DNA of 64,000 bases from Candidatus Forterrea multitransposorum CG_2015-17_Forterrea_25_41 (GCA_009392915.1 CP045477.1:352001-416000); one strand, 5' to 3'. Shown: positions 7,974 to 59,220, counted from the stretch's first letter. Numbers and translations: made by a program. The notes: a model not told the origin generated them from the letters alone.

Positions 7974-8585
7974 TCATTTTTTTTCTTCAACAAAAAACTT
8001 AAAGAAAATTGCAATAAAATTATGAATAGAATGTGCAATTGCAACAAAAATTAAATTTGTATAAAAAACATATATCATAGCAAGTAAAAATCCTTCAATA
8101 AAAACTAAAAGTAAGTCTAAATTTTTACGACTATAAATAACATGAATATACATGAAAAGTAAAGAATTAATAAAAACAACCATAATTGAAGAATTAAAGA
8201 TATCAAATAATTTAGGAATTAAATAACCTCTAAAAATAAATTCTTGTAAAAAGCATAAAGGAATAAAAACTAAAATATGGAATCTTTTTTCATGCCAATA
8301 ATGAATATAATGTTCTCTTTTTAAAACATATTTTGAAAGATAAATAATTGCAACAGAAACTAAAACAGTAAAAGCAATATATGGAAATATATGATTATCA
8401 ATATTATCAAATCTAATACCTAAATCATAAAATGTCATTCCTTCAATTATTATAAAGAAAATAACTATTAAAAAAATAGAAAAAAGAACATGTAGTCTAT
8501 ACTTAAAAGGAATAATTTTTTTATATAAAAGATATACAGGTAGTACAAAAACAAGTAATACCTGTATTATTGATATTAAAAACAT
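7974..8585 (-). CDS. CPBP-family (CAAX/Abi) intramembrane metalloprotease
   Basis: Multi-TM protein with QEFIFRGYL (EExxxR-like) and AHSIHNF (HxxxN) motifs. Confidence 0.6.
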   Translation of the reverse strand: MFLISIIQVLLVFVLPVYLLYKKIIPFKYRLHVLFSIFLIVIFFIIIEGMTFYDLGIRFDNIDNHIFPYIAFTVLVSVAIIYLSKYVLKREHYIHYWHEKRFHILVFIPLCFLQEFIFRGYLIPKLFDIFNSSIMVVFINSLLFMYIHVIYSRKNLDLLLVFIEGFLLAMIYVFYTNLIFVAIAHSIHNFIAIFFKFFVEEKK

Positions 8586-9945: not shown

Positions 9946-10338
9946 TTATAAAGAATAAACTTCTTTATAAATTCCATGAATATTACATAAAGCCCTAATT
10001 GTAACTTTTCTTCCTAAAGGAACTTTAAAAACAACTTCTGGTTTATCCCAATAATTAAGACTCTTAACATATAAAGACCCATCAACAGAAATTTCAATCC
10101 ATTTAATGAAATGTTCTTGTGTCATTGGATGCATAGGATCTCCAATCTTAACATATATTTCTTTTTCGCCTCTAATCTCTATATAAGGTTTATGAATATC
10201 TTCATTTGATGTAACTTTTTCTTCTTTAATTTCAAGATCCATTTCTTTACCACAACAAACTAAAGTTCCACCACCAATTTCTTTTAGTTCTACAACATTT
10301 CCACAAACTGAACATTTATATTTATCTCCAACTTCCAT
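9946..10338 (-). CDS. dfx: desulfoferrodoxin (2Fe superoxide reductase)
   Basis: N-terminal desulforedoxin Cys cluster (CSVCGN...CCGK). SOR domain HPMTQEHFIKWIE...CNIHG. Confidence 0.8.
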   Translation of the reverse strand: MEVGDKYKCSVCGNVVELKEIGGGTLVCCGKEMDLEIKEEKVTSNEDIHKPYIEIRGEKEIYVKIGDPMHPMTQEHFIKWIEISVDGSLYVKSLNYWDKPEVVFKVPLGRKVTIRALCNIHGIYKEVYSL

Positions 10339-10514: not shown

Positions 10515-12941
10515 TTAAATATTTTCTCTAATTTTTGATTTTGAAAAACCAGCATCTAAAAGATCTTCTTCTGAATAACCAGCAAGTCTAAGCTCTTCTA
10601 AACTATAACCTACACTTCTAAGTTCTCTTGCAGAAAAATGTAATTCTTTAAGTTCTTTGGCACCATAATGAATAACTTTCATAAGTCTAATTCCAACACC
10701 TAAATCAAAAACATCTTTTGCAGGATAACCAGCATAATGAAGTTGTCTTGCAGTATATCCTACATCATAAAGATCTTTTGCAGAAAATCCACCTTCTTTC
10801 ATAGAAGATGCATCATAACCTGCAATTTTTAAATCTCTTGCAGAATAATATGGATTTAAATCTTTTGGATAAAATCCAGCTTGAGACATTTCTTTTGCAG
10901 TATATCCTGCATTATAAAATTCAGAAATTGGTATACCTAAACCATAAAGTTCTTTTGCTTTATAACCTGCAAATCTAATAGTTGAAACATCAAAACCAGA
11001 ATCATACATTTCTTTTGCAGTATATCCTGCAGCATGATATTGTTTTGCAGTATATCCAATACTTAAAAGTTCTTTTGCACTAAATCCAGCTCTTCTAAGT
11101 TCAAGTAAAGAAAAGCCTTCTAAATGAAGTTCTAAAGCAGTAAATCCTGCAAGTCTTAAATCAATTAAATTATAACCATTTGCAAGGAAATCTTTTATTG
11201 TACATCCAAGCATATGAACTTCTCTTAAAGAATAACCACCTTCAAGTAAATCAAAACATGTACATCCAGCATTCTTTAAATCAATTGCTTTGTATCCAGC
11301 TTCTTTTAAATCTTTAATAGTATAACCTAATTTTAAAAGTTCAGGTATACTGTACTTTAAATATTTAAGTTCTTCTAAAGATACAACTTTATCATCTGAA
11401 AGAACAACAGGTTCAATAGGTTTTAAAGCAATTAACTCTGAAATATCAAATCCTGCTTCTTTAAGTTCATCAATTGTAATTCCATTTTCATATAATGGTT
11501 TTGCAGAAATTCCTTCTTTTCTAAATCTTACAAGAGGAATCTCTTTTAGAAGTTCTTTATAAGTAAAACCAATATCTAAAAGTTCTTTAATTGTAAATTT
11601 TTCTGCAACAATTTCTTCTAAAGAATAAACATCTTTAATTTCTTTTAAAGTATATCCTTTTTTTAGTAATTGTTTTAATGTAAATATTTTTGAAAGATCT
11701 TTAATTGTAAAACCACAATCTAATATTTCTTTAAGTTTATAACCAGCAGAAACAATTTCTTTTAAAGAATAACCAGCTTTTTTAAGATCTTTCGCAGGAT
11801 ATGCATATTCTTTTAATTTTTTAGCTCTAAATTTTGCATCTCTTAAATCTTTTGCATCAAATTCTGCAAAAAGAATTGAATGTTGATCAAATTTAACTTT
11901 CTTTAAATCACTTGGAGTATATCCTAAGTTTTTAAGATCTTTTGTTGAAATTCCTGCTTTCTTTAATTCTTTTAAAGAAAAATTTACATCATTAATTTCT
12001 TTAGGAGTATATTGTAGATAATAAAGATCTTTTGCAGTGAAGCCAAGTGACTTTAATGCTTTTGCATTATATTTATGTTCTTTTAAAACTTCAGCTGTTA
12101 AGCCATATGAAAATATTTCTTTTGAAGACATTTTTTTTAAAGTTTGATCATTAATAACTATTTTTACAACTTCTTCTTTTTTATTTTCAACTTTTTCTTT
12201 TTTTGCTTTTTCTTTTTTAATTTTATCTGTTTTTTCTTTTTTGCTTTTTACTTTTTCTTTTGGAAATTTATTTAAAGGTTTTATTTTTTCTTCTTTAATT
12301 TTAATTCCAATTTCTTTATCTGTAAAACCTGCTTTTCTTAACTGATCAATACTATATTTTGCTTTTTTAAGTTCTAAAATAGTATATGTACCTTGATATA
12401 GTTCTTTAGCAGTTAAACCAATATTTTTTAATTGTGATGCATCAAAACCTGCTCTCTTTAAATCTTTAACACTAAAACCAACTTCTAAAAGTTGTCTTGC
12501 AGTAAATTTAACTTTTTTTAATTCTTTTGAAGTATAACCTACAGATTTTAAATCTTTTAAATTAATTCCAAGTTCTTTTAAATCTTTTAAAGGAAATCCT
12601 GCAACTTGTAAATCTTTAACTGAATAACCTACAGAATAAAGTTCTTTTGCAGTAAAATCTAAATTTCTTAGATTTTGAGAACTAAAACCAACTTCTTTTA
12701 ATTTCTTAACAGTAAAGCCTGCTTTTTCTAAAGTTCTAGCCTTAAAGCCTAATCCCTTTAAAACAGTATAATTTGCTTTTACTTCATTTAATTTTTTTGC
12801 AAATTCTGTTTTATTTATTTTAAATTTTGAAAAAATAGAAACTGTTATTGGAGAAATAATATATCTTGAAGGAGAACTGATTTGTTTCTCTAAATATTCA
12901 TTTAATTCTTTTTTTGTTAAATTTTTTAAGTCAATAGCCAT
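10515..12941 (-). CDS. 808-aa protein built from about 68 tandem 10-residue repeats (consensus G-[FY]-[TS]-x-K-[DE]-L-[KR]-x-[AV]), with an internal Lys-rich linker; unknown function
   Basis: Read from the translation: strict 10-aa periodicity over residues 60-210 and 270-800, and a 30-nt DNA periodicity (recurrent tcttttgcag.atatcc units). There is no signal peptide. Confidence 0.7.
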   Translation of the reverse strand: MAIDLKNLTKKELNEYLEKQISSPSRYIISPITVSIFSKFKINKTEFAKKLNEVKANYTVLKGLGFKARTLEKAGFTVKKLKEVGFSSQNLRNLDFTAKELYSVGYSVKDLQVAGFPLKDLKELGINLKDLKSVGYTSKELKKVKFTARQLLEVGFSVKDLKRAGFDASQLKNIGLTAKELYQGTYTILELKKAKYSIDQLRKAGFTDKEIGIKIKEEKIKPLNKFPKEKVKSKKEKTDKIKKEKAKKEKVENKKEEVVKIVINDQTLKKMSSKEIFSYGLTAEVLKEHKYNAKALKSLGFTAKDLYYLQYTPKEINDVNFSLKELKKAGISTKDLKNLGYTPSDLKKVKFDQHSILFAEFDAKDLRDAKFRAKKLKEYAYPAKDLKKAGYSLKEIVSAGYKLKEILDCGFTIKDLSKIFTLKQLLKKGYTLKEIKDVYSLEEIVAEKFTIKELLDIGFTYKELLKEIPLVRFRKEGISAKPLYENGITIDELKEAGFDISELIALKPIEPVVLSDDKVVSLEELKYLKYSIPELLKLGYTIKDLKEAGYKAIDLKNAGCTCFDLLEGGYSLREVHMLGCTIKDFLANGYNLIDLRLAGFTALELHLEGFSLLELRRAGFSAKELLSIGYTAKQYHAAGYTAKEMYDSGFDVSTIRFAGYKAKELYGLGIPISEFYNAGYTAKEMSQAGFYPKDLNPYYSARDLKIAGYDASSMKEGGFSAKDLYDVGYTARQLHYAGYPAKDVFDLGVGIRLMKVIHYGAKELKELHFSARELRSVGYSLEELRLAGYSEEDLLDAGFSKSKIRENI
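10545..12765 (-). repeat. intragenic 30-nt tandem repeats encoding the 10-residue protein repeats
   Basis: Recurrent near-identical 30-mers on the minus strand, e.g. at 10724, 10768, 10895, 11015, 11041 and 11075. Confidence 0.6.
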
Positions 12942-23150: not shown

Positions 23151-24092
23151 CTATCTTCTTTTCTTAATAAGAGAAGATCTTGGTTTTTTATCTTCTTTTT
23201 TCAAAACAGTAGTTTTTGGCTTAGGTGTTATATAACGTGCATATTTTAAAAATAAACTATGATTACTTGATTTACTTGGATCAACAACACTTAAAATTCC
23301 AATTTTGTTTTTCTTATTTATGAAGATAATATCAAAATTAAAGTATTTTTTACCTTTTTCATAACCAATACCAACACCAGGCATAAATAAAGATTTATCT
23401 CCCTTAATATTATAAGTTCCTCTAACTTGCCAGTACATATCTTTTAACTTAGTATCTCTAGCACTGAAAAAACCAAGAGCAGCTGTAAATGATTTTTTTT
23501 TGTCAGCAGCAAAATTAACCTCACCTATTCCAGAATAATTAGTTAATTTACCATTATTAAAATTTAAACTTACTGCACCTAATACTTTTTTACTAATTAA
23601 AGCAGCTTGTGCTCTAGAACCTTTTGATGCTTCAACAATATTAAATCCTTCAAGTTTATAATTATTTAATTTTTTATCAAAACCAATTTTTAAATTTATT
23701 TCTTTACCAAAAATTTTTGAAAGATTTGCAGCAAGGTTTACTTGTTCAAATAATTTATCAGTAGTAGGTTTTTTATCAAATAATAATGTATTTGTACCTA
23801 CAGTTAAACCTAAATTATATTTCCCTTCCATAAATTTATTTTTAAAATCAGCACCATATCTGGCTTCAAATGATTGAAATAAAAAATCTTTTTGAGTTAT
23901 GGTTGTACTTAATAAAGCAACACCATTTTTTTCCATAGAAGGTGTTAAACCAGCATAATTAGACAATTGCTGTGCTTTCACAGCAGGTAAAGTTAATGAA
24001 CCTATAACAATAGGTAACCCTGCAACTAATATCTTTGAATCTTTTAAAACTGCAGAAACAAAATCTTTAAAATCATTAAATTTATAAGTCAT
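23151..24092 (-). CDS. hypothetical secreted protein with alternating-hydrophobicity (beta-strand-like) segments and a basic C-terminal tail
   Basis: N-terminal hydrophobic segment ILVAGLPIVIGSLTLPAVKA. Stretches of alternating hydrophobic residues. Ends ...LIKKRR. Confidence 0.45.
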   Translation of the reverse strand: MTYKFNDFKDFVSAVLKDSKILVAGLPIVIGSLTLPAVKAQQLSNYAGLTPSMEKNGVALLSTTITQKDFLFQSFEARYGADFKNKFMEGKYNLGLTVGTNTLLFDKKPTTDKLFEQVNLAANLSKIFGKEINLKIGFDKKLNNYKLEGFNIVEASKGSRAQAALISKKVLGAVSLNFNNGKLTNYSGIGEVNFAADKKKSFTAALGFFSARDTKLKDMYWQVRGTYNIKGDKSLFMPGVGIGYEKGKKYFNFDIIFINKKNKIGILSVVDPSKSSNHSLFLKYARYITPKPKTTVLKKEDKKPRSSLIKKRR

Positions 24093-24200: not shown

Positions 24201-24776
24201 ATGATAAAGAAGTATGATAATTTAGCTTTATTAATACACCCAATGTATTCAATAGTTACTGACATATATAGAAATACAACAGGTATGGGTAAAATCACTT
24301 TTAAAGAAATGGAAAGTGAATATGTAAAGAGATTAAATGTCTATAAAGAAAGTATTTCTTCTTTTAAAAACACAAATACTCTTTTTGTACTTGTTGAACC
24401 TACAAAAGATTTAATGAATTTTAAATTAGAATTTTTCTATAAGCATATGATGGAAGATTTATATGTTTTTGCAAAAAAAGAACTTGGTCTTTCTTTTAGA
24501 AAAATAACAGATCTTAATTATCTTTCAGATATTAAAAAAATAACACCTACTCTTAAAAAAAATATTGGAGTTTTTTCTTTTGGAGAGCATAGAGAAGTTT
24601 GTGTTAAAACATTTAATGAATATACAATTAATTTTTTAAAAGAAAATAATTTTAAACCTATTTCTAAAGGAATACAAATAAAATTTTCATTTGATATTGA
24701 AAATAAAAGATTAAGACAAGTTCAAAAAGAAAAGCCTAAACCAAAGCCAAAAAAAATAATAAAAAAAAGAAGATAA
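24201..24776 (+). CDS. hypothetical protein with Lys/Pro-rich C-terminal tail
   Basis: ORF track. Ends KEKPKPKPKKIIKKRR. Transcribed divergently from 23151-24092. Confidence 0.45.
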   Translation: MIKKYDNLALLIHPMYSIVTDIYRNTTGMGKITFKEMESEYVKRLNVYKESISSFKNTNTLFVLVEPTKDLMNFKLEFFYKHMMEDLYVFAKKELGLSFRKITDLNYLSDIKKITPTLKKNIGVFSFGEHREVCVKTFNEYTINFLKENNFKPISKGIQIKFSFDIENKRLRQVQKEKPKPKPKKIIKKRR

Positions 24777-24781
24777 GAAAT

Positions 24782-24937
24782 TTAAGCCATTAATATTTCT
24801 GTATGACCAAAACATCCACAAGAGTCAGAACCGCAATCTCCTGCTTGTAAAATATCTGTATGTGTGAAACATCCACAAGAGTCTGAACCGCAATCTCCTG
24901 CTTGTAAAGTATTTAAATTAAAATTTTCTGTATTCAT
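24782..24937 (-). CDS. 51-aa Cys-rich peptide with a perfect tandem duplication of a 20-aa unit (LQAGDCGSDSCGCF[TG]HT[DE]IL)
   Basis: Hand translation gives MNTENFNLNTLQAGDCGSDSCGCFTHTDILQAGDCGSDSCGCFGHTEILMA. The SD-like AAGAGGT lies 8 nt upstream with a TATA-like box further upstream. Not in the ORF track because it is under 60 aa. Confidence 0.45.
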   Translation of the reverse strand: MNTENFNLNTLQAGDCGSDSCGCFTHTDILQAGDCGSDSCGCFGHTEILMA

Positions 24938-24997
24938 ATTTTATAACCTCTTTATATATTTTAATTATTAAAAAAAATAGTTTTTAAAAATAATATT

Positions 24998-25025
24998 CGC
25001 CTGCAAGCTTGGCGGAAAGCTTAAG
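24998..25025 (-). promoter_or_regulatory. conserved 28-nt tRNA 3' trailer hairpin (CTTAAGCTTTCCGCCAAGCTTGCAGGCG) directly after tRNA-Ala
   Basis: Identical, apart from one base, to the trailer after tRNA-Gly at 30261-30288. Contains two palindromic AAGCTT hexamers that can form a 6-bp stem. Confidence 0.5.
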
Positions 25026-25098
25026 TGGACTCTGCGAGATTCGAACTCGCGGCCTCGTCCTTGCAAGGGACGCGCTCTACCAGCTGAGCTAAGAGCCC
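25026..25098 (-). tRNA. tRNA-Ala (TGC)
   Basis: Hand-folded. G3:U70 identity pair. Anticodon loop CTTGCAA. T-arm CGAGTTCGAATCTCG. No encoded CCA. Confidence 0.9.
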
Positions 25099-25265
25099 TA
25101 ATAACTATTGAACCAATATATTATATATATTATAGAACAAAAATATTTATAAACACATCAGATTTATTTTTAATCAAAATTATAAAAATAAAATTATGGA
25201 CTGATAAATATACTTTTAAAAAAATATTATTAAATAAAAAAAGAAAAATTTCTTATAATTAAAGA

Positions 25266-25300
25266 AATTTTGATGTGTGGAAGAAAAACAAACACTTCAG
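25266..25300 (-). promoter_or_regulatory. 3' half of 16S rRNA processing stem (UCUUCCACACAUC...)
   Basis: Complementary to GAUGUGGAAGA upstream of the 16S 5' end (26918-26928), with a 2-nt bulge. This is the typical archaeal pre-16S bulge-helix-bulge (BHB) / processing helix context. Confidence 0.45.
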
Positions 25301-25364
25301 GTTAGGTAAGTTTTTAAAACTTTTAAAATAACAACTAACATTTAGTCATTATATAAAATAGGAG

Positions 25365-26854
25365 GTGATCCGTCCGCAGGTTCCCCTACGGACACCTTGT
25401 TACAACTTAGTCTACCTCGCGAAATATAGAATAACTTTATCCTTTAGTAGAGTAAAGTTCATCAACACTCCACTCGGTTGGCTTGATGGGCGGTGTGTGC
25501 AAGGCGCAGGGACATATTCACCGCGTGATAGTGACACGCGATTACTGGGGATTCCAGCTTCATGAGGGTGAGTTGCAACCCTCAATCCGGACTTAGACTA
25601 AGTTTTTGAGATTGCCACCCCTTTTCAGGTTAGATACTCTTTGTCTTAGCCATTGTATGCCGCGTGTTGCCCAGAACATTCACGCTATACAGACCTACCT
25701 TCGCCCACTCCTTCCTCATTGTTACCAATGCAGTCCTATTAGAGTGCCTTCTTTTGCAAGCAAAAAAAGTAGCAACTAATAGCATGGGTCTCGCCCGTTA
25801 CCTGAGTTAACAGGAAGCTTCACAGTACGAGCTGACGATGGCCATACAGCAGTTCTCAGCGCATCAGGTAACCCCTTCAGAGTGACCATCATATTGCTGT
25901 CAGCCCTGGTAAAATATCTGGCGTTTCATCCAATTAAACCGCAGCATCCACCCCTTGTAGTGCACCCCCGCCAATTCCATTAAGTTTCAGTCTTGCGACC
26001 ATACTTCCCAGGCGGTGAATTTAATGGTTTCCCTTCGGCCCTGAGCTAACTCGTAGTTAACCCAACACCTAATTCACATCGTTTACGGCTGGGACTAACC
26101 GGGTATCTAATCCGGGTTGCGCCCCCAGCTTTCGTATCTCACTGTCGAATCCGTACTCGTTAAGCGCCTTCGCCACAGGTGGTCTTTTTAGTATCTTAAG
26201 ATTCTACTCCTACTCTAAAAATACCCTTAACGTCTTCCGGTTCCTAGTCATGCCAGTATCTTTTGCAATTCAACTAGTTAGGCTAGCTGCTTTCACAAAA
26301 GACTTAACAAACCAGCTACACACGCTTTAAGCCAAATAATGCTGGATACCACTTGGGGATTACGTATTACCGCGGCGGCTGGCACGCATATTGCCCTCCC
26401 CTTATTCACATAGTTATTCACACTATATAAAAGCTTACATAGTAAGCACTTGGAATCTCTTTATCACGATTTCTCGCATTGTAAAAGTTTCGTAACTGCT
26501 GCACCCCGTAGGGCTAGGGACATTATCTCAGTTCCCTTCTCCGGGCTACCTCTCTCAAGGCCCGTACAGATCTTCGGCTTGGTAGGCAGTTACCCTACCA
26601 ACAACCTAATCTGGCGCAGTCCCATCCTTTCGCGCCAAAGAAGCATGATTCTTTGACCTTTAAAATAGTAATCATTCCAGATTTACTTTTTTATAGAGCA
26701 TTATACTCAGTTTCCCGAGTTTAACTCTTCAAAAGGGTAGGTTGACCACGTGTTACTGAGCCGTTCGCCAAAACCTCTCATAGCTGAGGCTTTAAGACTT
26801 GCATGTCTTAGTCAGATTCCAATAGCAGTATCCACCAGCAGGATCAGCTGGAAT
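25365..26854 (-). rRNA. 16S rRNA (archaeal)
   Basis: 5' ATTCCAGCTGATCCTGCTGG... and 3' ...GTAACAAGGTGTCCGTAGGGGAACCTGCGGACGGATCACCTCCT read on the minus strand. Universal segments (GTGCCAGCCGCCGCGGTAA etc.) present. About 1490 nt. Confidence 0.9.
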
Positions 26855-27631: not shown

Positions 27632-27763
27632 CTATGATGCAGCTCTTTTTCTTAAGTATCTTCTTTCTCTTCTTGTTTCTCTCATTTTTTTCTTTTTCCA
27701 TTTCCATCTTTGTCTGGATTTTGTTTTCTTAAATCTACTTGAATCTTTTTTTCTAGTACCCAT
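27632..27763 (-). CDS. rpl41e: ribosomal protein L41e (43 aa, not in the ORF track)
   Basis: Hand translation gives MGTRKKDSSRFKKTKSRQRWKWKKKKMRETRRERRYLRKRAAS. Extremely basic, with the RWKWKKK core characteristic of archaeal/eukaryotic L41e. Confidence 0.6.
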   Translation of the reverse strand: MGTRKKDSSRFKKTKSRQRWKWKKKKMRETRRERRYLRKRAAS

Positions 27764-28109: not shown

Positions 28110-28262
28110 ATGGAAACAATTGCAAAAGAAAGAAGATTAAAAAACATATGGGTTTGTATGTCATGTAATAATACAATGAGAAGTCCAAAGAAAATGGAAT
28201 ATTGTAATAAATGTGGTGCCATAAAAATCAGAGCTAAAAAGAAAGGAAAGAATGTAAAGTAA
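28110..28262 (+). CDS. rpl40e: ribosomal protein L40e (50 aa, zinc ribbon; not in the ORF track)
   Basis: Hand translation gives METIAKERRLKNIWVCMSCNNTMRSPKKMEYCNKCGAIKIRAKKKGKNVK, with the C-x2-C...C-x2-C pattern of L40e. Preceded by TTAAGGTGAAACAAA, the same SD context as lysS. Confidence 0.65.
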   Translation: METIAKERRLKNIWVCMSCNNTMRSPKKMEYCNKCGAIKIRAKKKGKNVK

Positions 28263-43550: not shown

Positions 43551-44807
43551 TCACTTTTTTATTTTATTCTTAATAAAAATAATTATCCCAGTTAAAATCA
43601 AAGCTATTAAAATAACTCCAATAGCAGAAAATATATTATTTAAAAGACCTGGAGAAAAGACAAGCATACCACCTAAAGATAACATCATCATACCTGAAAG
43701 TAATTTTAAGGATTCTCCTTGAGATTGAGATAATTTTCTTGCACCTAAAGTATATGTAAATATTAAAACTATTACAAGTAATGGTAAAACATACATTAAG
43801 TTATAAAATAATAAATAAGAATAATAACTTACATTACTTAATTGATTTAAAACTAATATTTTTGTAAAAACCATAGGGAAACCAGCAGTACATAATAACT
43901 CATAGATGTTTGCTGTTATTGCAAGAACTATTGTTCCAATCATCATTGAAGTCATAGATTCTGCTTTTAAAAGACCTCTCATCTTTGTAATCAAATTTTT
44001 TCTATGATCATCTGAAACTGATAAAGTAATTCCTTTTTTAAAAGCAAAAAAATCTTTAATATTTATAATTGCAATTACTAAAGCTATAATTCCTGCAATT
44101 GTTGTAACAATTGAAATATTTTGTGTGACTTTAAAAAAATTAAGCCATGCTGACATGAATAAAAAATAAATTAAACCAGAAAAGAAAATAAATGTAAGAC
44201 CAATAATTAGCATTCTTTTCTTATTCTTTGCATAAACAAGCATTGATAATAAAAATAATAAAACAAAAAAAGCACAAGGATTAAAACCATCTAAAAAACC
44301 TAAAATTATTGTTAAAAGTGGTAAAGAAACAGAACTTCCATCAATTTTACCAATTAATGGAATATTAAAGGTTTGGGAAGAATTTTGGTTTATGTCTTGT
44401 AAATTATTATCTTGATCTAAATTAATATCATTTACTTCAATTTTTGCATTTTCAATTATACCAATAATCTCATCATTCATTTGAGAGCTATAACCTACAA
44501 AATATTGATCACCTATAAAGGTTGTAGGCACACCCTGAGGTTGAAAACCATGAGATTGTGTTAAATCATAAAAGAGCTCCTGATTTTCAACTGAAGACAC
44601 TTCATAATAATTAATATTTAGATAATCATAATTATTTTCAATAGATGTTAAAAAATTTTTTAATTCTGCACAATGAGGACAAGTATTACTTACAAAAATA
44701 TTTACATCTAAATTGTTTTCTAAAGCATTAACAGATACTGAAAAAACTAATAAAAATAAAAAAGTAAATAAAAATATTTTGTTTAAGATAATTTTTTTTG
44801 TTTGCAT
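43551..44807 (-). CDS. thioredoxin-domain / CcdA(DsbD)-type transmembrane thiol:disulfide reductase fusion
   Basis: N-terminal signal, thioredoxin CPHC (NTCPHCAEL), then a multi-TM DsbD core with the FNPCAF Cys motif. Confidence 0.7.
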   Translation of the reverse strand: MQTKKIILNKIFLFTFLFLLVFSVSVNALENNLDVNIFVSNTCPHCAELKNFLTSIENNYDYLNINYYEVSSVENQELFYDLTQSHGFQPQGVPTTFIGDQYFVGYSSQMNDEIIGIIENAKIEVNDINLDQDNNLQDINQNSSQTFNIPLIGKIDGSSVSLPLLTIILGFLDGFNPCAFFVLLFLLSMLVYAKNKKRMLIIGLTFIFFSGLIYFLFMSAWLNFFKVTQNISIVTTIAGIIALVIAIINIKDFFAFKKGITLSVSDDHRKNLITKMRGLLKAESMTSMMIGTIVLAITANIYELLCTAGFPMVFTKILVLNQLSNVSYYSYLLFYNLMYVLPLLVIVLIFTYTLGARKLSQSQGESLKLLSGMMMLSLGGMLVFSPGLLNNIFSAIGVILIALILTGIIIFIKNKIKK

Positions 44808-45786: not shown

Positions 45787-46743
45787 TTAATATCTAGATG
45801 GTTGAATTAAAGTTATTAAATAATCTTTCTTTAAAGAAGTCATAAGCAATTCAACTCTAAACCCTGTGTCTTGTAATATTTGTACAATTGAACCCATTGT
45901 AAATTTATAAGATCTGCCTATTAATAAAAAATCATCTTTTTCAAGTTTTATTTTTTCAGAACCTATCTCAATATAAATATCATCTTTTAAATAAATGGTT
46001 TGCTCAACCTGATTTAATAAAATATTCCAAGCAACATTATATTCTACTTGATCATCTTTAATTCCAAGATAATGTGGAACAAACATAACAAAATTATAAG
46101 CACCTGTTATTTTATATTTATTAATTATATTATCTGTTTTATAAATATTAGATAATTCTACACCTAATAACATATAATCATCTGAGCCCATTGAATCACG
46201 AATATTAGTAAGAACTCTTTCTCTATTAAAATGATTTCCTAAAGTAGAACCTAAAAAACAAAGTAAATTATTAAATCCATCTTTTTTTAAAGTATAAATT
46301 ATATCTGAAAATTGACCTTGCTCAAAATCAATATTGATAGGTAATATTTCTACATCAAATTTTTTAGATATATTATTTTTAGCTAAATTTAACATAGAAT
46401 TACTTATATCTATAGGCACATATCTAAAAACAATATTATTCTCTTTTAAATAATCTAAAATAGGTAATATTGGCTCACCAGTTCCACAACCAAGATCAAT
46501 AATATTTAGTTTAATATCCTTTAAATCGTAAGTAGATATTATATCTTGTATTCTTTTTTTAAGTAAAACAGATTCATTAGAATTAATTGTATTTTTAGAA
46601 TTAGCTCTTAAATTTGAAATATTAAACCAATTTTCTGCTCCTTTATCTAAATAAGCAAATTTTAATGGTATTTCACCAGTAGCCTTAATAGAGGTAATTA
46701 ATTCAAATTCTTGTTTTTGTGATAACATAAATAAATTATACAT
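45787..46743 (-). CDS. class I SAM-dependent methyltransferase
   Basis: Motif I IIDLGCGTGEP and motif II/III spacing; substrate unknown. Confidence 0.65.
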   Translation of the reverse strand: MYNLFMLSQKQEFELITSIKATGEIPLKFAYLDKGAENWFNISNLRANSKNTINSNESVLLKKRIQDIISTYDLKDIKLNIIDLGCGTGEPILPILDYLKENNIVFRYVPIDISNSMLNLAKNNISKKFDVEILPINIDFEQGQFSDIIYTLKKDGFNNLLCFLGSTLGNHFNRERVLTNIRDSMGSDDYMLLGVELSNIYKTDNIINKYKITGAYNFVMFVPHYLGIKDDQVEYNVAWNILLNQVEQTIYLKDDIYIEIGSEKIKLEKDDFLLIGRSYKFTMGSIVQILQDTGFRVELLMTSLKKDYLITLIQPSRY

Positions 46744-50444: not shown

Positions 50445-51206
50445 TCATACAATTATCTTTAAAATTAGTTTTTCAATTATATCTTTATTTATTCTAAGTA
50501 TGCTAGAGACCTGTTCTAGTTCTTCTTTAGTTATATTTGTTTTAAATTTAATCAATCTTTCTTTAATCGTGTGATTTTTTATAAAAGAAATTAAAGTAGA
50601 TATATCTTCTCCAGAATATAAACATAAAGCAACTATATCACAATAATCTTTAATCTTTTTATGTGTTTGACCTCTATTTACTACAGAATTTATCTTAGTA
50701 GCTAATAATAGAGGTGGAGAGGGTAGCCATAATTTTTTATTAAATTCAATTAATTCTGTTCTATATTTTTTATTCTCAAACACTAACTTAACTAAAGGTT
50801 CATCTGCAGGTGCAAATCCAAGTTCATTTATTATTTGTTTGTTAGTTTCTGCAATTAAAAGATCAATATACATAGGAAAAATATTATGAATAGGAGTGGT
50901 GATTGATTCTTCTTTGGTTAGTTCTTTTCCAGTTTCATAATTTATTTCTTTTAAATATCTAAAACTAACTAATTTAAATCCATTTTCTTCTAAAATATTA
51001 GATGTATATTTAAATGATTTTATAGTATTAAACCCTAAATCTACATCTCTTGAACCAATATAATCAGTTCCAAATTCTGATTTATATCTTGAATTTACAG
51101 TTAAATATGTAGCCCAACCTCCAATAATTATAATTGGTTCTTTTAGTTTAGATATAATTATTTTTAAATAATCATAACTAATTTCAGTTTCTTTTTTGTC
51201 GTACAT
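50445..51206 (-). CDS. AbiEii-like nucleotidyltransferase toxin (type IV TA / abortive infection)
   Basis: IIIGGWATYL...YIGSRDVDLGF matches the AbiEii/DUF1814 NTase motif (GG.A...R.S.D.DL). Overlaps the upstream wHTH gene by 23 nt. Confidence 0.55.
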   Translation of the reverse strand: MYDKKETEISYDYLKIIISKLKEPIIIIGGWATYLTVNSRYKSEFGTDYIGSRDVDLGFNTIKSFKYTSNILEENGFKLVSFRYLKEINYETGKELTKEESITTPIHNIFPMYIDLLIAETNKQIINELGFAPADEPLVKLVFENKKYRTELIEFNKKLWLPSPPLLLATKINSVVNRGQTHKKIKDYCDIVALCLYSGEDISTLISFIKNHTIKERLIKFKTNITKEELEQVSSILRINKDIIEKLILKIIV

Positions 51207-51777
51207 ATTTATTAAGTAGTATATTATATGCTTCTATACATACCCCACCTTCTTTTTTAAGATCAATTAATAATTGAGGAATAGAGACAACCTTGAGTTC
51301 GTTTATTTTATTTGATTCTTTAAAAACATCTTTACCTTTTGAAATGATTAAAACTACATTTCCATTACCAATCAATCCTTTAGTTAAGATTAAATCTTTC
51401 CATTTTACATAATCTTCTTTAGAAATATATGCTTGAAATTTGTGTGGGAATAGATGATGATTAATTATATTTTCAGCAGCATAGGTTGTTAATGCATAAT
51501 CTAAGTTAGTTGTTTTAAAAAAATCAAGTGGATTTGATATATGAAAGTAATATTGTTCATATTTTTTATCTATTTTTATATAATAATCAATAAGTTTATT
51601 GACATCAATAACTTTTGTTTTTTCAATAATCCCTTCATTTTCTAATTTTCTAAGAAATTGAATAGTCCAAGCAATAGAGGTATTTGAAATTTTTGAAAGT
51701 TTATACTTAGTTAAACTTCCATCTGGATTATTTAGAAGAATTTTTATGATTTTTAGATTTTTTATATTTCTCATCAT
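51184..51777 (-). CDS. AbiEi-like wHTH antitoxin/transcriptional regulator
   Basis: N-terminal winged-helix (LSKISNTSIAWTIQFLRKLENEGIIEK) plus a C-terminal domain; genetic coupling to the NTase gene. Confidence 0.5.
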   Translation of the reverse strand: MMRNIKNLKIIKILLNNPDGSLTKYKLSKISNTSIAWTIQFLRKLENEGIIEKTKVIDVNKLIDYYIKIDKKYEQYYFHISNPLDFFKTTNLDYALTTYAAENIINHHLFPHKFQAYISKEDYVKWKDLILTKGLIGNGNVVLIISKGKDVFKESNKINELKVVSIPQLLIDLKKEGGVCIEAYNILLNKYVRQKRN

Positions 51778-51791
51778 ATATATATTGGTTA

Positions 51792-52295
51792 TTAGAAGGG
51801 TTTATAAAGGTTACCGATATATTGGTAATATTGGTAGTATATAAACTTAACCAATATAGCTATTAACCAATACTTCTTTTTATACTCTCTAGCATCAATT
51901 CTTTCTTTTAATTTTATTCTTTCTTCTACAAGTTCTTGTTTTCTTGTCTGAATTGCAAAATAACTTTGAGCAAATGCAATTTCTTCTTTTCTTGAGTCTC
52001 CATTTTGTGCTATTAAGTAACATGCATATCTAGTTAATGTATAATCAATTATTTCTCTTTCTGCATCAGATCCTAATTTAACCTTTTTCCTGACCTCAAG
52101 AAAATGGTCATTAATATTAAATCCTGAATTTTTACAAGAAATTTTTGCTTTTTCAATTATACTTACAAAATTTTCCCATTTAGTATAACCTAAAAGGTCT
52201 TGTAACTCCCTTGCAAGCCAAAATTCAAGATTATCTTTAAAATAAGCACTATCTTGAAAACTTTTAGTTAGTTTATAAATTATTTCTCTTTGCAT
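51792..52295 (-). CDS. DinD-like (DNA-damage-inducible protein D / BRO-N-like) protein
   Basis: The N-terminal half is collinear with E. coli DinD: FWLARELQDLLGYTKWENF...NDHF...GSDAEREIIDYTLTRYACYLIAQNGD...YFAIQTRKQEL. Confidence 0.65.
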   Translation of the reverse strand: MQREIIYKLTKSFQDSAYFKDNLEFWLARELQDLLGYTKWENFVSIIEKAKISCKNSGFNINDHFLEVRKKVKLGSDAEREIIDYTLTRYACYLIAQNGDSRKEEIAFAQSYFAIQTRKQELVEERIKLKERIDAREYKKKYWLIAILVKFIYYQYYQYIGNLYKPF

Positions 52296-52346
52296 AGAAC
52301 ATCACATATATATAAGAGTCTTTAATTTATATATTGATTTTGTAAG

Positions 52347-52367
52347 AGAGGGTAAATGGCCGAGAAA
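52347..52367 (+). repeat. 21-bp direct repeat AGAGGGTAAATGGCCGAGAAA (copy 2)
   Basis: Exact match to 48811-48831. Confidence 0.6.
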
Positions 52368-52382
52368 GAGAAGAATAGAATT

Positions 52383-52934
52383 TTATTTTAATAAAGCATA
52401 AAGATAATTATCATATACTTTACCATTATAGATAGCTGATTTTTTTAAAAGCCCTTCTTTTTTAAATTTACTTTTTTCTAAAACTTTAATAGAGCCTATA
52501 TTTTTAGTACAAACTTCAGCTGCTATTCTTTTAATACAGGTATTTTTAAATAAAAAATGAATATATGCTTTTATAGCTTCAGACATAAATCCTTTATTCC
52601 AATAAGAAGAATGAAGCATAAAACCTAAATCACATCTTTTAAAATCTTTAATAATTGTAAAAATATCAATAGAGCCTATTAATTTATTTTCATAAGTTAT
52701 AAAAAAAGAAGCTCCTTTTCTTTTTTTCCAAGCATCTACTTTTCTTAAAATTTGTTTTTCTACAATCTTTCTTGAGTTTTTATTATCTCCAGAACCATTA
52801 TATATCCAGAGATTTTTATCTTCATATAACTTATAAAGTTCTTCTTTATATTTTATATCTGGTTTTATAAGTAATAATCTTTTTGTCTTTACTGGCTTAT
52901 ACTTATAACCTTTGTTAAATATTTTTTCATCCAT
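52383..52934 (-). CDS. GNAT acetyltransferase (RimJ/RimL-like)
   Basis: Motif A region and the C-terminal ...KVLEKSKFKKEGLLKKSAIYNGKVYDNYLYAL typical of the RimL family. Confidence 0.7.
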   Translation of the reverse strand: MDEKIFNKGYKYKPVKTKRLLLIKPDIKYKEELYKLYEDKNLWIYNGSGDNKNSRKIVEKQILRKVDAWKKRKGASFFITYENKLIGSIDIFTIIKDFKRCDLGFMLHSSYWNKGFMSEAIKAYIHFLFKNTCIKRIAAEVCTKNIGSIKVLEKSKFKKEGLLKKSAIYNGKVYDNYLYALLK

Positions 52935-53619
52935 GGTTTAACCTTTTATATTCTTTAATTGCTTTATTAAGTACATTTAAAAAATTAGGATCTTTTTTCC
53001 ATTCTTCTAAAATAAATACTCTTAATTTAGAATGTTTAGAATAACCATCATCTTTAATTTCTATTAAATCTTTAAATTCCTCATTAATTATTACTGTAAA
53101 AGATTCTTTAATATCATGAATTTCAGATTCAGATAAATTACTTTCTTTACAAACGTTCCAAAAATAACTATGAAAGAATAAATGCATAAGCTCATGAATT
53201 ACAACTCTAAATAAATATTTATCCACATATTCGATATAAATGAATATTCCAAACCACTTTTGGTTTTTTCTAAATTCATAAGGACAAGCAACAAAAGTAT
53301 TATATTTAATATATACTTTATTAACAGGAAATTTATTTTTGTGAATCTTTTCTAATTTATTTATTATCTCATCCTTATATTTATTCAATTTTAGATTAGA
53401 ATTATAAAAATTAGTTAAATACTTTTTAGAATAAAATTTTTTAGTGTATTTATCTATTAACTCAACTTTTTTAGAATCAGATGCACTTATTAAAGAATTT
53501 TTAAAATCCTCAGGATAATCTTTAAACCAATCATTACCATAAGCACTAGAGTTTTTAATAAATTTAAGCCAATTTTTTAAATTTTCTTCTTTTGATACAA
53601 TAAATTCTATTTCAACCAT
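52927..53619 (-). CDS. putative HExxH zinc-metallopeptidase-like protein
   Basis: VVIHELMHLFFH motif; otherwise unassigned. Confidence 0.4.
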   Translation of the reverse strand: MVEIEFIVSKEENLKNWLKFIKNSSAYGNDWFKDYPEDFKNSLISASDSKKVELIDKYTKKFYSKKYLTNFYNSNLKLNKYKDEIINKLEKIHKNKFPVNKVYIKYNTFVACPYEFRKNQKWFGIFIYIEYVDKYLFRVVIHELMHLFFHSYFWNVCKESNLSESEIHDIKESFTVIINEEFKDLIEIKDDGYSKHSKLRVFILEEWKKDPNFLNVLNKAIKEYKRLNHG

Positions 53620-54817: not shown

Positions 54818-55406
54818 AAAAATGATATTATTTATGAAAATAAGAAAAATAAAATTAAGAGAGCTAAAAGAAGCAGATATTTTTAAAGAAAAAATATTAA
54901 ACCCAGAAAAAAAAAGAAGATATAGACCATATTATAAAATTTTAAAAAATTACAAAAGAGAGCCTTCTTTATTTATTGGAGCTTATGATAAAAATAGAAT
55001 TATAGGAGTTGCTTTTGGGCATATTATAAAAAATAGAATATTATTAGGTGAAATGGCTGTTTTAGAAGAGTATAGAAACAAAGGGATTGGAAAAAAAATA
55101 TTAAAAAAAATTGAACAAAATTCAAAAAAATTAAATAAGAAATATATAGAGCTTGGTGCTCTTGATAATGCAGAAAAATTTTATCTTAAACAAAATTACA
55201 AACCAATTATTTTTGTGCAAATATATCCAAAAAATATCTTGAAAAATTACAATCATTTAAATTATAAAATAATTAAAGAAACAAATTATGTTGATTCTAA
55301 AAGATTTTATATTGAGGTTAAAAGATATGATCCTAAATTAAAAGAAAAAATAGAAAAAGAATTTAAAGCATATGATGTAATCTATTTATTTAGAAAATAT
55401 TTATAA
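54792..55406 (+). CDS. GNAT-family N-acetyltransferase
   Basis: Motif A VLEEYRNKGIGKKIL. Confidence 0.6.
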   Translation: MKSLKNIFKKMILFMKIRKIKLRELKEADIFKEKILNPEKKRRYRPYYKILKNYKREPSLFIGAYDKNRIIGVAFGHIIKNRILLGEMAVLEEYRNKGIGKKILKKIEQNSKKLNKKYIELGALDNAEKFYLKQNYKPIIFVQIYPKNILKNYNHLNYKIIKETNYVDSKRFYIEVKRYDPKLKEKIEKEFKAYDVIYLFRKYL

Positions 55407-56924
55407 CTTAAAATCCCAAAGATGTTTACCATCAATAGTTGCATTCTTATCCATCTCTTGGATATACTTTCTAATTACCTTATAACTCTTTTCTAAAGGA
55501 GTTACTGGTTTTTTACCTTGATCAATTCTTGTAAAAGAAGAAATAATGTCTTCTTTTGAATATTCCTTAAGTAATAATTTATAAAAACCTTCTTGTAAGA
55601 AAGGTACAAGATTTCTAAAATAGGAAGAAGCTAGATTTAAATTATTTTTATTTTTTGCCTTAAGATACTCTTTAAAGTTATCTTGCATAAATTCAACCAT
55701 ATTTTTTAACTTTATTTCAATATTTATATAATCTAAAGATAAAATATACTTAGTTAATTCTTTTTTATCATTTTCAAATTCTTTTGTTTTAATTATTTTT
55801 ATCATTTTAAATAAAGATTTTTCTTTATTAACTAAAATTTTTAATTTTGGAGAATAATATACTTTTCCTTTCTTTCCATCAACTATAACTTCATCAAAAT
55901 TATTTGTTTCTTTTAATAATTTTGAAATATTAATACCACCAATACAAGGTATATTATTTTCTCTTGCAACTATTGCAGGATGTGAGGTTATTGAATCAAC
56001 TTCACAAATAACAGCTTTAGCTTTTTTAAAAATAAGGTCATATTCTGGAAAAAGAACATAAGTAACTAAAATATTTCCTTTTTTAAATATTTTATAAGCT
56101 TCTTTAGGGTCAGTTGCATCTGAAACATATTCTATGTTTCCTTTAGCATAACCATTTGAAAGGGTTATACCTTTTAGTTCTTTTTGGTTTTTTGCTTTAT
56201 TTACTATAATTTTTTTAATATTTTTTAAAGTAGTAATATTTCTTGTTTGTAAAAACCAAATTCTGTCTTTATTATCTATTGCAAATTCTATATCTTGAGG
56301 ATATTTAAAATATTGTTCAATTTGTTTTCCTTCTAGATATAATTTTTTAAAAGTTTTATTTAATTGTTTAGTAGTATTAATTTTTAAAGAATTTTTCTTT
56401 CCTGAAACCATTTCTTCTAGATGTCCTTTTACATGTTCTATTAAAAAACCTTTATTTGTTATTGGGTTTTTTGTAAAATATACTCCTGATAGTTTTGGTA
56501 TTATTTGTTTTTGTATAATTACAGCTAAGGTATCTTTTAATTTTTTATTAGTATATGATTTTAAAGAGATTTTCTTTTCTGAAGCAATAACTTTAGATAT
56601 TGCTAAAAATAGTTCTTTTTCATTATTTATATTTGTAATTGAGGTAAACTGTCCTGCAAAAGATTGTTTTACAGAATCTTCATAGATTGAAGAGCTTCTA
56701 ACAACTAAAGGGTATAATTCTCCTCCATAGTCTATTTGTTTTAAATAATCTTTAATTTGTTTCTTTAGATTAAGAGAAAAAGATTTTTTTATTATTTTAC
56801 AGAAATCTCTAGAGAGAACAAAACCATTAGGCACATTATAGGCTGCTCTTTTTAAAAGCATTAGGTTATATGCTTTATTTCCTACTTGTTTTTTATCAGC
56901 TACAGTGTAAAGGTTATAGATCAT
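55401..56924 (-). CDS. PEP-utilising-enzyme family protein (PPDK-type ATP-binding N-domain plus phosphohistidine swivel domain, no PEP/pyruvate TIM-barrel domain)
   Basis: The N-terminal VGNKAYNLMLL...VPNGFVL...VVRSSSIYEDSVKQSFAGQF...PQDIEFAID...LQTRNIT matches the PPDK_N domain. The C-terminal ICEVDSITSHPAIVARENNIPCIGGI matches the mobile His domain. Confidence 0.65.
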   Translation of the reverse strand: MIYNLYTVADKKQVGNKAYNLMLLKRAAYNVPNGFVLSRDFCKIIKKSFSLNLKKQIKDYLKQIDYGGELYPLVVRSSSIYEDSVKQSFAGQFTSITNINNEKELFLAISKVIASEKKISLKSYTNKKLKDTLAVIIQKQIIPKLSGVYFTKNPITNKGFLIEHVKGHLEEMVSGKKNSLKINTTKQLNKTFKKLYLEGKQIEQYFKYPQDIEFAIDNKDRIWFLQTRNITTLKNIKKIIVNKAKNQKELKGITLSNGYAKGNIEYVSDATDPKEAYKIFKKGNILVTYVLFPEYDLIFKKAKAVICEVDSITSHPAIVARENNIPCIGGINISKLLKETNNFDEVIVDGKKGKVYYSPKLKILVNKEKSLFKMIKIIKTKEFENDKKELTKYILSLDYINIEIKLKNMVEFMQDNFKEYLKAKNKNNLNLASSYFRNLVPFLQEGFYKLLLKEYSKEDIISSFTRIDQGKKPVTPLEKSYKVIRKYIQEMDKNATIDGKHLWDFKL

Positions 56925-57087
56925 ATTTAATCAAGTGTAATAGATATATGAGGATTTATGTTTAAAAGGCTTTCTTAAGTAGCTTATAAAAGGACTTTTT
57001 TCTTTAATCTGTAAAGAAAAACCTTAAAATCCTTAAAAAAAAGAAAATAATAAATAGATTAAAAATAATTTAATTTTAAATTATAAT

Positions 57088-57753
57088 CTATTTATTAATT
57101 ATATTGATAACATCAATTAAATCTTCAATTACATAATCTGGTTTATATAAAAAATGTTTATAAGGCAATTTAAGTGGATTATATAAAACAGCATTAATTC
57201 CATATTTTTTAGCTTCAATATCAACAGATAAATCCCCTATATGTAAAACATTTGAAGGTAAATAACCATCTAATTTAATTTTATTAATAAAATCAACATA
57301 TGGTTTACCAGATGCTTTCTTTCCACCTACTTCATTAGATAATGAAAAATATTTAAAATTATTAAATTTATTTTCTTTAACCCAATCTTTAATCCAGCTA
57401 GTTTTTGTATCACTAATAATTCCAAGAATATAATCTTTTTTTATTAAGTATTTTATTAATTTTAAAGTATTTTTAGAAAATTTATTTTTTAAAGTATATT
57501 CTTTGGAATTATTTATTATATTATTATAATTTTCAGAAATTGCTTTAGATAGACTTTTAGTATATTTAATATTAATTTTTTTTAATAAAACTTTTAAAAA
57601 AGCATCTTCTTTATATTTACTATTTTGAAAATCTCTCCAAGTTTCTTCAACAGCCTTAAGATAATTATTATATGTTAATGTAAAATTTTCTTTTTTTAGT
57701 ATTTTAAATTCACTTTTATATATTTCAAATAACAAATTTGGATCACTATCCAT
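57088..57753 (-). CDS. HAD-superfamily hydrolase
   Basis: Motif III/IV region HIGDLSVDIEAKKYGINAV and LGIISDTK. Confidence 0.55.
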   Translation of the reverse strand: MDSDPNLLFEIYKSEFKILKKENFTLTYNNYLKAVEETWRDFQNSKYKEDAFLKVLLKKINIKYTKSLSKAISENYNNIINNSKEYTLKNKFSKNTLKLIKYLIKKDYILGIISDTKTSWIKDWVKENKFNNFKYFSLSNEVGGKKASGKPYVDFINKIKLDGYLPSNVLHIGDLSVDIEAKKYGINAVLYNPLKLPYKHFLYKPDYVIEDLIDVINIINK

Positions 57754-58566: not shown

Positions 58567-59220
58567 TTAAGTATAAATTATTTTACTTTTTATAAATTTA
58601 ATTTCAAGTTTTTCTGTGCATTTAATTTTAATTATTATATTTGCACTTTTTGAAAAATTATCTGCAAAAATATTTATGTTTGAACTAATTTTATATATTT
58701 TATTTTTTTCAAATTTAATTTTAGGAAATCCAATAGGTATTTGTTTAATCATAGGTAAAATATTTCCATTTATATTTACACTTCCTTCAAAAAAATTAAA
58801 TAAATCTAAATAATGCAATTCATTTTTAGATAAATTAAAATTTTCTTTACCTTCAGAACATTTACCTTTATGAGTTGCACTCCAGACAAAATAATTAGGA
58901 TCAAAAGGATATATTTTTTTATTATTCAATTTTATTTCATTACATTTAATTTTAATATTGTTTATTGCTATTGAACCTATATTTATTACTTTTATTCTAA
59001 AATAAATTAAATTACAACTTGAACCATCATGTTGATTAATATAAATTTTATTAATCTTATGAACACAGTTAACATCATCTAAATCAATTTTAATTTTTGG
59101 TTTTTTAATAAAATTAATAATATCTTCTTTAAATAATGCAACAACTACTGCACATAGAGTTAAAAAAGCCATAATTATTTGAATAATTGAATCTAAATTA
59201 TTTTCAACCATCAATACCAT
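58567..59220 (-). CDS. single-pass membrane protein of unknown function, translationally coupled to hsdR (17-nt overlap)
   Basis: N-terminal TM IIQIIMAFLTLCAVVVALF; no motifs. Confidence 0.45.
   Translation of the reverse strand: MVLMVENNLDSIIQIIMAFLTLCAVVVALFKEDIINFIKKPKIKIDLDDVNCVHKINKIYINQHDGSSCNLIYFRIKVINIGSIAINNIKIKCNEIKLNNKKIYPFDPNYFVWSATHKGKCSEGKENFNLSKNELHYLDLFNFFEGSVNINGNILPMIKQIPIGFPKIKFEKNKIYKISSNINIFADNFSKSANIIIKIKCTEKLEIKFIKSKIIYT

Follow-up and report, generated by a model that had tools for sequence, protein, structure and literature searches.

A Cys- and His-rich two-repeat peptide gene downstream of tRNA-Ala in the small genome of a DPANN archaeon

The open reading frame and its surroundings

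The window, the whole 64-kb stretch of DNA that was analysed, carries on its minus strand an archaeal 16S rRNA gene, a tRNA-Ala(UGC) gene and, 87 nt past the tRNA, an open reading frame (ORF) of 51 codons (Table 1). The translation of this ORF, MNTENFNLNTLQAGDCGSDSCGCFTHTDILQAGDCGSDSCGCFGHTEILMA, bears out the initial annotation of a 51-amino acid Cys-rich peptide, and the position ascribed to it, directly after 16S-tRNA-Ala, is confirmed. The peptide contains six Cys residues, two His residues and seven Asp or Glu residues, with no Lys or Arg; its net charge is approximately −7 and its Cys content about 12%. The two CxxxxCxC clusters that had been pointed out are present, and the spacing between Cys and His across the family takes the form C-x4-C-x-C-x2-H, C-x-C-x-C-x2-H or similar. 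Tandem Repeats Finder assigned the repeat a 57-nt period, at 2.1 copies and 87% matches. Direct comparison of the two units revealed identity at 50 of 57 nucleotides and 17 of 19 amino acids, the differences being Thr/Gly and Asp/Glu. The duplication had been described as exact and 20 amino acids long; the unit is instead one of 19 residues and the copies are not identical. No paralogue of the peptide was detected by tblastn in the 64-kb window.

The GC content of the ORF is 34%, compared with approximately 22–24% for the genome and 22–27% for the window outside rRNA, and this elevation is attributable to the Cys, Gly, Ala, Asp and Ser codons of the ORF, the third positions of which are mostly T or A. 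An Rfam search detected no 23S rRNA gene anywhere in the 64-kb window. The earlier remark that the peptide gene occupies the place of 23S rRNA thus holds as a statement of position but implies nothing further, given that the 16S and 23S genes are unlinked in these genomes.

Table 1. Positions of the peptide gene, its putative expression signals and its immediate neighbours in the window.
Feature	Position	Strand	Basis or remark
Cys/His-rich two-repeat peptide ORF, ATG to TAA, 51 codons	24782..24937	−	Translation; only frame open in all homologues; dN/dS 0.22–0.49
Repeat unit 1 (LQAGDCGSDSCGCFTHTDI)	24851..24907	−	Tandem Repeats Finder, 57-nt period; unit-versus-unit comparison
Repeat unit 2 (LQAGDCGSDSCGCFGHTEI), then C-terminus ILMA	24794..24850	−	Tandem Repeats Finder; unit-versus-unit comparison
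Shine-Dalgarno-like GAGGT	24946..24950	−	8 nt before ATG; invariant in ten loci, spacer around it diverged
A/T-rich TATA-like element, T-run then AAAATA	24957..24972	−	Centred approximately 24–30 nt before ATG; TTAAAATA at 24957–24964
T-rich stretch after the stop codon (ATTTCTTATCTTCTTTTTTTT...)	24745..24781	−	Overlaps 3' end of the convergent 191-aa gene
tRNA-Ala(UGC), conserved upstream neighbour	25025..25098	−	87 nt before the ORF
Canonical archaeal TATA box (TTTATAAATA)	25144..25153	−	46–55 nt upstream of tRNA-Ala
Archaeal 16S rRNA gene	25360..26854	−	Rfam RF01959, 1353.7 bits
Gene for a 313-aa protein	23151..24092	−	No Pfam match
Gene for a 191-aa protein	24201..24776	+	Convergent; no Pfam match

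The good Shine-Dalgarno sequence that had been noted upstream of the ORF stands as GAGGT, which is complementary to the 3' end of this 16S rRNA (...CACCUCCU). Similar motifs (GGTGAT, GAGG) are enriched before other genes of the window, at 12 of 61 compared with a background of 7%. The TATA-like box is likewise present and roughly conserved, but taken alone it carries little weight at a GC content of 24%. The arrangement T(n)-AAAA(T/A)A-(A/T)5-6-GAGGT was found in all ten loci, including L023, in which the peptide gene lies behind two other genes, and this A/T-rich element may be the peptide gene's own promoter, giving rise to a leaderless or very-short-leader mRNA. Farther upstream, the canonical TATA box before tRNA-Ala is kept in every one of the nine aligned loci amid an otherwise diverged 16S-tRNA spacer, so that tRNA-Ala likely has a promoter of its own and does not depend solely on the 16S operon. 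The tRNA is probably transcribed from this promoter, a possible source of a tRNA-Ala–peptide co-transcript. In some loci just 38–42 nt lie between the tRNA and the ATG, too little for a promoter from which the mRNA could include GAGGT; the invariant Shine-Dalgarno element would therefore imply that the peptide is translated from a tRNA-Ala–peptide co-transcript after tRNA 3' processing. A search for inverted repeats that might form a 16S processing stem past tRNA-Ala yielded A/T-rich noise only. In ten loci TAA is followed by T-rich sequence of a kind typical of archaeal oligo-T termination, and we infer a terminator role for it. Expression could thus proceed by translation via GAGGT on RNA reading through from tRNA-Ala or from the 16S-tRNA-Ala unit, with tRNA 3' processing freeing the peptide mRNA from the read-through transcript; the A/T-rich promoter might also, or instead, drive the gene, and transcription would end at the T-rich tail.

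The upstream neighbour of the peptide gene is nearly always tRNA-Ala, at a distance of 38–231 nt in most loci and of 1.6 kb, with two genes between, in L023. Genes downstream vary even among very close relatives. A DUF4013 membrane-protein gene directly follows the peptide gene in three loci (L005, L024 and L003), and in several relatives it lies on the same strand 90–140 nt downstream. This proximity is what might suggest a Cys-codon-rich leader peptide that governs the DUF4013 gene by translation-coupled attenuation. However, two genes, one of them convergent, precede DUF4013 in the window and three do so in L023; the stop codon is followed by a T-rich terminator-like tail in all loci; selection acts on residues of the peptide other than Cys; and the Cys codons are not consecutive. 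A role in attenuation is therefore very improbable, and we rejected it on the ground that downstream gene order varies.

The two genes that separate the peptide gene from DUF4013 in the window (Table 1) encode proteins with Lys/Arg-rich tails (…KKRR). They are missing in L005, L024 and L003 and present in L018, L022 and L023, and thus constitute a presence/absence polymorphism. In L018 (9316–9555), as well as in L019, L020 and L021, a 79-aa ChaB-like ORF (PF06150) lies inside the 16S-tRNA-Ala spacer. Two very small basic ORFs near the rRNA, at 27632–27763 (−) and 28110–28262 (+), are called in all related loci. Of these two, the one of 43 aa (RWKWKKKKMR) resembles L41e and the one of 50 aa (CxxC…CxxC) resembles L40e, so that both may encode ribosomal proteins.

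Several genes elsewhere in the window deserve mention in their own right. An 808-aa protein encoded at 10515–12941 (−) consists almost entirely of the "Decapeptide repeat region" (PF25296, 592 bits, 12 stretches). The segments 59204–63963 (−) and 50445–53619 (−) form a defence- or mobile-looking block. It encodes the HsdR protein of a type I restriction system (1018 aa), a 568-aa ATPase of the AAA_21/AbiEii-like type and a protein with a Bro-N domain, alongside several ORFs that match no family. A desulfoferrodoxin (superoxide reductase) gene at 9946–10338 (−) points to an anaerobic lifestyle. A 318-aa protein encoded at 45787–46743 (−) matches Methyltransf_33, the EgtD-type histidine-specific SAM methyltransferases (E 4e-33), an enzyme of ergothioneine-type pathways that was unexpected in so small a genome; near it, at 43551–44807, lies the gene for a glutaredoxin-domain protein with a signal peptide.

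Coding status and distribution of the family

An open frame of 51 codons is by itself weak evidence for a gene: at local composition the chance of such a frame is P ~0.008 per start, and 59 ORFs of at least 30 aa overlap the surrounding 11 kb. What is decisive, as judged from sequence comparison, is conservation of the frame in relatives. Homologues in which the frame is kept open comprise 12 distinct two-repeat peptides of 51–57 aa. In every locus examined (n = 6) the annotated frame alone stays open, and stop codons interrupt all other frames in every homologue. Pairwise dN/dS is 0.22–0.49 in the ORF frame and approximately 0.8–1.6 in shifted frames; substitutions between homologues cluster at third codon positions, the excess of synonymous changes per pair being associated with Fisher P values of 0.008–0.04; and indels between homologues are in frame. 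The GAGGT motif, the ATG, the TAA and the T-rich tail are kept in ten loci in which the tRNA spacer and the downstream sequence diverge or change length. The refutation test named in the initial annotation, frame conservation in relatives together with the synonymous/non-synonymous pattern, thus speaks for coding. On this comparative evidence, the ORF is a genuine protein-coding gene under purifying selection.

A segment of 34% GC in a genome of approximately 22–24% GC, set beside rRNA and tRNA genes and bearing an ORF whose length is not significant on its own, might alternatively be a structured RNA or processing element in the trailing part of the rRNA/tRNA transcript, or else an ORF that is open by chance. 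The predicted RNA fold of the segment, however, is no better than that of shuffled sequence (z = +0.55), and Rfam returned no family for it even at E ≤1, for which reasons a structured RNA was rejected. An Rfam scan of 24600–25400 returned just the tRNA, the end of 16S rRNA and a sub-threshold chance match to RNase P (21.7 bits versus a gathering threshold of 100, E 0.42). Given also that substitutions favour third positions, that dN/dS falls below 0.5 solely in the ORF frame, that the other frames are stopped and the indels in frame, and that the amino acid composition accounts for the elevated GC, we consider it highly improbable that the ORF is anything other than a protein gene.

A word-indexed search of 5.8 billion proteins identified six relatives, and an HMM search run exhaustively over 1.84 billion cluster representatives, together with a second profile search extended the family to the 12 two-repeat peptides; one further variant was found in a metagenome locus. 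The exhaustive profile search of 1.84 billion proteins returned no members outside the clade, scans of metagenomes and genomes added close relatives only, and all peptide loci with a 16S gene show at least 96.7% 16S identity to that of the window. On these searches, the family is thus confined to one genus-level clade of DPANN archaea, the close relatives being named Candidatus Iainarchaeum; the host genome is small, at approximately 0.66 Mb. Public assembly collections contain the exact window peptide in 101 index blocks. A scan of viral contigs revealed no relative, which leaves the idea of a mobile or viral origin without support.

Divergence of the peptide has outpaced that of its housekeeping neighbours. 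At 99.87% 16S identity, the peptide is 88% identical compared with 96% for FEN1 and 94% for DUF4013, and between L018 and the window the corresponding values are 44% for the peptide, 73% for FEN1 and 85% for TK.

Scans of the peptide against Pfam-A (hmmscan) and NCBIfam at E ≤10 assigned it to no family, and a PDB profile search returned chance matches only (E ≥0.14); among these, the SLU7 CCHC knuckle (E 0.78) was not accepted as evidence. A literature search turned up no work that deals specifically with the family or its motif. The family is previously uncharacterised, real and lineage-specific.

A 32-aa single-repeat "variant" is recorded as database entry P0006 (relevant loci, L015 8631–8744, L017 1–166 and L014 78–176). 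In the metagenome-assembled genome STF1_257, one contig stops within repeat 2, another starts 67 nt upstream and contains the collapsed 32-aa ORF, and the two share a 126-nt prefix. We therefore rejected P0006 as a true single-repeat member and regard it as an artefact of assembly collapse; the tandem repeat of the peptide gene breaks short-read assemblies.

Conserved architecture and candidate functions

In the family alignment, every member consists of a variable NH2-terminal segment of 5–13 aa followed by two modules, which are joined by a linker of 0–10 aa. Each module comprises Φ-x-A-G; then a stretch of 7–9 residues drawn from Cys, Ser, Gly, Asp and Asn, which includes two or three Cys and usually ends in C-G-C; and finally Φ-[S/T]-H-x-[D/E/N]-x. 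The COOH-terminus is I-L-[M/I/V]-A, with I48, L49 and A51 invariant in the alignment. Strict invariance is seen for both His residues, for the A-G pairs, for the Gly within C-G-C and for the terminal Ile, Leu and Ala. All members have exactly two His residues, one per repeat, and four to six Cys residues, and the invariant His always lies three residues past the last Cys or Ser and is followed by x-[D/E/N]. C-x-C motifs occur in the family, and no single Cys column is strictly invariant, Cys alternating with Ser. Loss of a Cys is offset by a new one nearby, as in the change from DCGSDSCGC to DSGCNSCGC or to SCDCGNSGC. The two-repeat architecture is kept in every member; the identity of the two modules within a peptide is 88–89% in the window peptide, P0007 and P0011 and 26–37% in others, which indicates, at the level of sequence, occasional homogenisation between repeats.

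The peptide has no signal peptide or membrane segment. AlphaFold2 yielded models with pLDDT values of 42 for the alignment headed by the window peptide and 46 for that headed by the divergent P0011, and the peptide is thus predicted to be intrinsically disordered. Such values are as would be expected for a metallothionein-like peptide modelled without metal.

We tentatively regard the peptide as a metallothionein-like microprotein that binds metal through thiolate and imidazole groups, a reading that is plausible though short of probable. The peptide would stay in the cytoplasm, as the lack of a signal peptide or membrane segment suggests, and serve to buffer or chaperone Zn, Cu or Fe; its four to six Cys, two invariant His and flanking Asp or Glu residues would enclose one or two ions of the metal, and it would fold only with metal bound. 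This reading is favoured by the presence in each module of an invariant His whose spacing from the last Cys does not change, by the constancy of Cys number despite plasticity of Cys position, by the C-x-C motifs, strong acidity, obligatory pairing of modules and predicted disorder, and by the lack of a leader, a signal peptide or maturation genes. On the other side, the peptide shows no homology to known metal-binding families in Pfam (including prokaryotic metallothioneins), NCBIfam or PDB; no Cys column is invariant and Ser, a poor metal ligand, often replaces Cys; the Cys content of approximately 12% lies towards the bottom of the metallothionein range; and rapid evolution is more typical of peptides involved in conflict or communication. 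The alternation of Cys and Ser is equally typical of heterocyclised or dehydrated cores.

This last feature leads to the second possibility, that the peptide is a two-core RiPP precursor. Each cassette would begin with Φ-x-A-G as the site of recognition or cleavage, continue with a core of Cys, Ser, Gly and Asp and close with H-x-E-I-L as the follower, and would be modified by an unlinked enzyme and cleaved out, possibly to yield a metallophore or an antimicrobial; the modification might be azoline or azole formation, thioether or lanthionine bridges, or a methanobactin-like oxazolone/thioamide. Consistent with such a precursor are the Cys/Ser/Gly-rich core with free exchange of Cys and Ser, tandem cassettes that are sporadically homogenised (in three lineages), the invariant A-G before each core, the predicted disorder, and the rapid evolution and narrow distribution of the peptide. 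RiPP clusters in DPANN have also been reported from genome mining (PMC12144867).

A RiPP-type-looking cluster was indeed found in relatives of the clade, which carry a precursor-like ORF together with a radical-SAM/SPASM-like gene. In L018 (15861–17194) and L020 (4813–6035), a 52-aa precursor-like ORF (…GTCGEKPCKGKYQ) directly precedes the gene for a 387-aa radical-SAM protein with a Cys-rich SPASM-like COOH-terminus, a gene that overlaps the start of one for a PEP-utilising enzyme; in L018, the 52-aa ORF, which is separate from the peptide gene, and the radical-SAM/SPASM-like gene lie 5.8 kb downstream. In the window, tblastn with the L018 radical-SAM protein detected no homologue, and only the PEP-utilising neighbour is present (55401–56924). 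The L018 cluster has a precursor of its own and is missing at the syntenic site of the window (55401–57753), yet the window keeps the peptide.

The search for maturases covered 64 kb of the approximately 660-kb genome and about ten syntenic loci. Pfam scans of 50 ORFs of the window showed housekeeping and defence genes, with no YcaO, Lan (LanB/C/M/KC), radical-SAM, DUF692, ATP-grasp or C39 protein among them, and the same families were not found in precomputed Pfam annotations of the 10-kb flanks in relatives. No CxxxCxxC motif was detected in window ORFs of at least 120 aa. The radical-SAM or peptide-maturase genes that the initial annotation proposed to look for were therefore not found within the 64-kb window. 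Neighbours of the peptide gene differ between loci, with no enzyme, protease or transporter consistently linked to it. A gene for an Rce1-like CPBP intramembrane protease at 7974–8585 (−) was rejected as a partner, being 16 kb away, and the peptide does not have a CaaX-type COOH-terminus.

Several observations thus weigh against a RiPP precursor: neither the 64-kb window nor the approximately ten syntenic loci show a maturase, C39/ABC exporter or dedicated protease in linkage with the gene; the NH2-terminal segment of 5–13 aa and variable length is not a usual leader; the putative core and the COOH-terminus are conserved, the reverse of the pattern of conserved leader and variable core; the peptide matches no NCBIfam precursor family; the L018 cluster is absent where the peptide is retained; and the genome is small, at approximately 0.66 Mb. 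The conserved parts, namely Φ-x-A-G, C-G-C-Φ-[ST]-H and the COOH-terminal I-L-x-A, include flanking motifs that are possible recognition sites, in a pattern that is unusual. We consider a RiPP precursor unlikely overall. A narrower form of the proposal, in which a two-cassette precursor of a thiol/azole metallophore or of a signalling or antimicrobial peptide owes its maturation to an enzyme that is unlinked, unrecognised or supplied by the host, and is expressed as a 3' passenger of a tRNA-Ala transcript, appears quite improbable; if true, it would amount to a RiPP pathway that lacks any recognisable cluster, in an archaeal genome that ranks among the smallest.

Metal-binding or RiPP-like character had both been suggested at the outset. 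The former fits the conserved features better, as we infer from the His in each repeat, the Cys count, the acidity and the disorder, and the latter has lost ground; neither is proven.

A third possibility, which we regard as doubtful, is some other thiol- or partner-dependent role, such as that of a peptide active in redox reactions or disulfide exchange, of a relay for sulfur or Fe-S, or of a docking microprotein with a regulatory task. Many archaeal µ-proteins dock onto larger proteins. Purifying selection acts on what is a real gene; strict invariance is found at Ala, Gly, His and the COOH-terminal I-L-x-A rather than at Cys, and these residues may form a docking motif; disorder suits folding upon binding; and the host, to judge from the window, is an anaerobe with thiol and redox genes, namely those for desulfoferrodoxin, a glutaredoxin-domain protein and an EgtD-like methyltransferase. 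The idea is unspecific, however, and no partner gene co-varies with the peptide in the loci examined.

Relation to known small Cys-rich peptides

Internal repeats and duplication are common among metallothioneins generally. The window peptide resembles cyanobacterial SmtA/BmtA and the mycobacterial Cu(I)-binding MymT in size, richness in Cys, C-x-C motifs, His residues and repeated architecture; those proteins are approximately 50–56 aa long and Cys-rich, with C-x-C motifs and one to three His ligands, and have no stable fold in the metal-free state (for example, PMC10612145 and PMC7387436). There is, however, no detectable sequence relationship, searches of Pfam, NCBIfam and PDB profiles having come out empty, and the peptide does not match the Metallothio_Pro or BmtA-SmtA profile (Cys9His2-type Zn4 cluster fold; Pfam-A, E ≤10). 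It further differs from prokaryotic metallothioneins in that its Cys density is lower, its Cys positions are not fixed and Ser often replaces Cys, as well as in its DPANN host and the absence of a metal-regulated neighbour such as an SmtB-type repressor. The peptide would thus work most like bacterial metallothioneins without being a member of their families.

In Haloferax volcanii, zinc-finger µ-proteins such as HVO_0758 and HVO_2753 are smaller than 70 aa and bind one Zn ion through two C(P)XCG half-sites (PMC11241148, PMC10716476, PMC6562870). The window peptide is likewise archaeal and small with two Cys-containing half-sites, but it shows no sequence similarity to these zinc-finger µ-proteins and does not contain the C(P)XCG knuckle, CPxCG and CxxCG motifs being absent from all 12 two-repeat members. 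NMR solution structures exist for the C(P)XCG µ-proteins, whereas the window peptide is predicted to be disordered.

With precursors of the PatE (cyanobactin), MbnA and SCIFF/ranthipeptide types the peptide shares short length, a Cys/Ser/Gly-rich composition, tandem cassettes and short conserved flanking motifs. The core of methanobactin MbnA is LCGSCYPCSCM, and the CGS..C..C composition of the peptide resembles it. Unlike those systems, the peptide gene has no YcaO, MbnB/DUF692, radical-SAM/SPASM, protease or exporter gene linked to it in the window, nor does the peptide possess a leader of the usual length. SCIFF/ranthipeptide and other NCBIfam precursor HMMs did not match at E ≤10, and neither MbnB (DUF692) nor related proteins were found among the scanned window ORFs or the flanks of relatives.

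None of the features of the peptide so far is mechanistically surprising. Given that DPANN genomes are very small, a gene kept across a genus-level clade is probably useful to its host. If the peptide is a metal buffer or chaperone, it would represent a metallothionein-like archaeal family without sequence relatives in the databases searched; if it is instead a RiPP precursor without a cluster, ultra-small symbionts would make modified peptides without recognisable gene clusters. At 51 aa, the peptide can be made synthetically and is present in many public metagenomes, and it is thus an accessible target. The locus also illustrates how small ORFs ride on tRNA/rRNA transcription units in reduced genomes.
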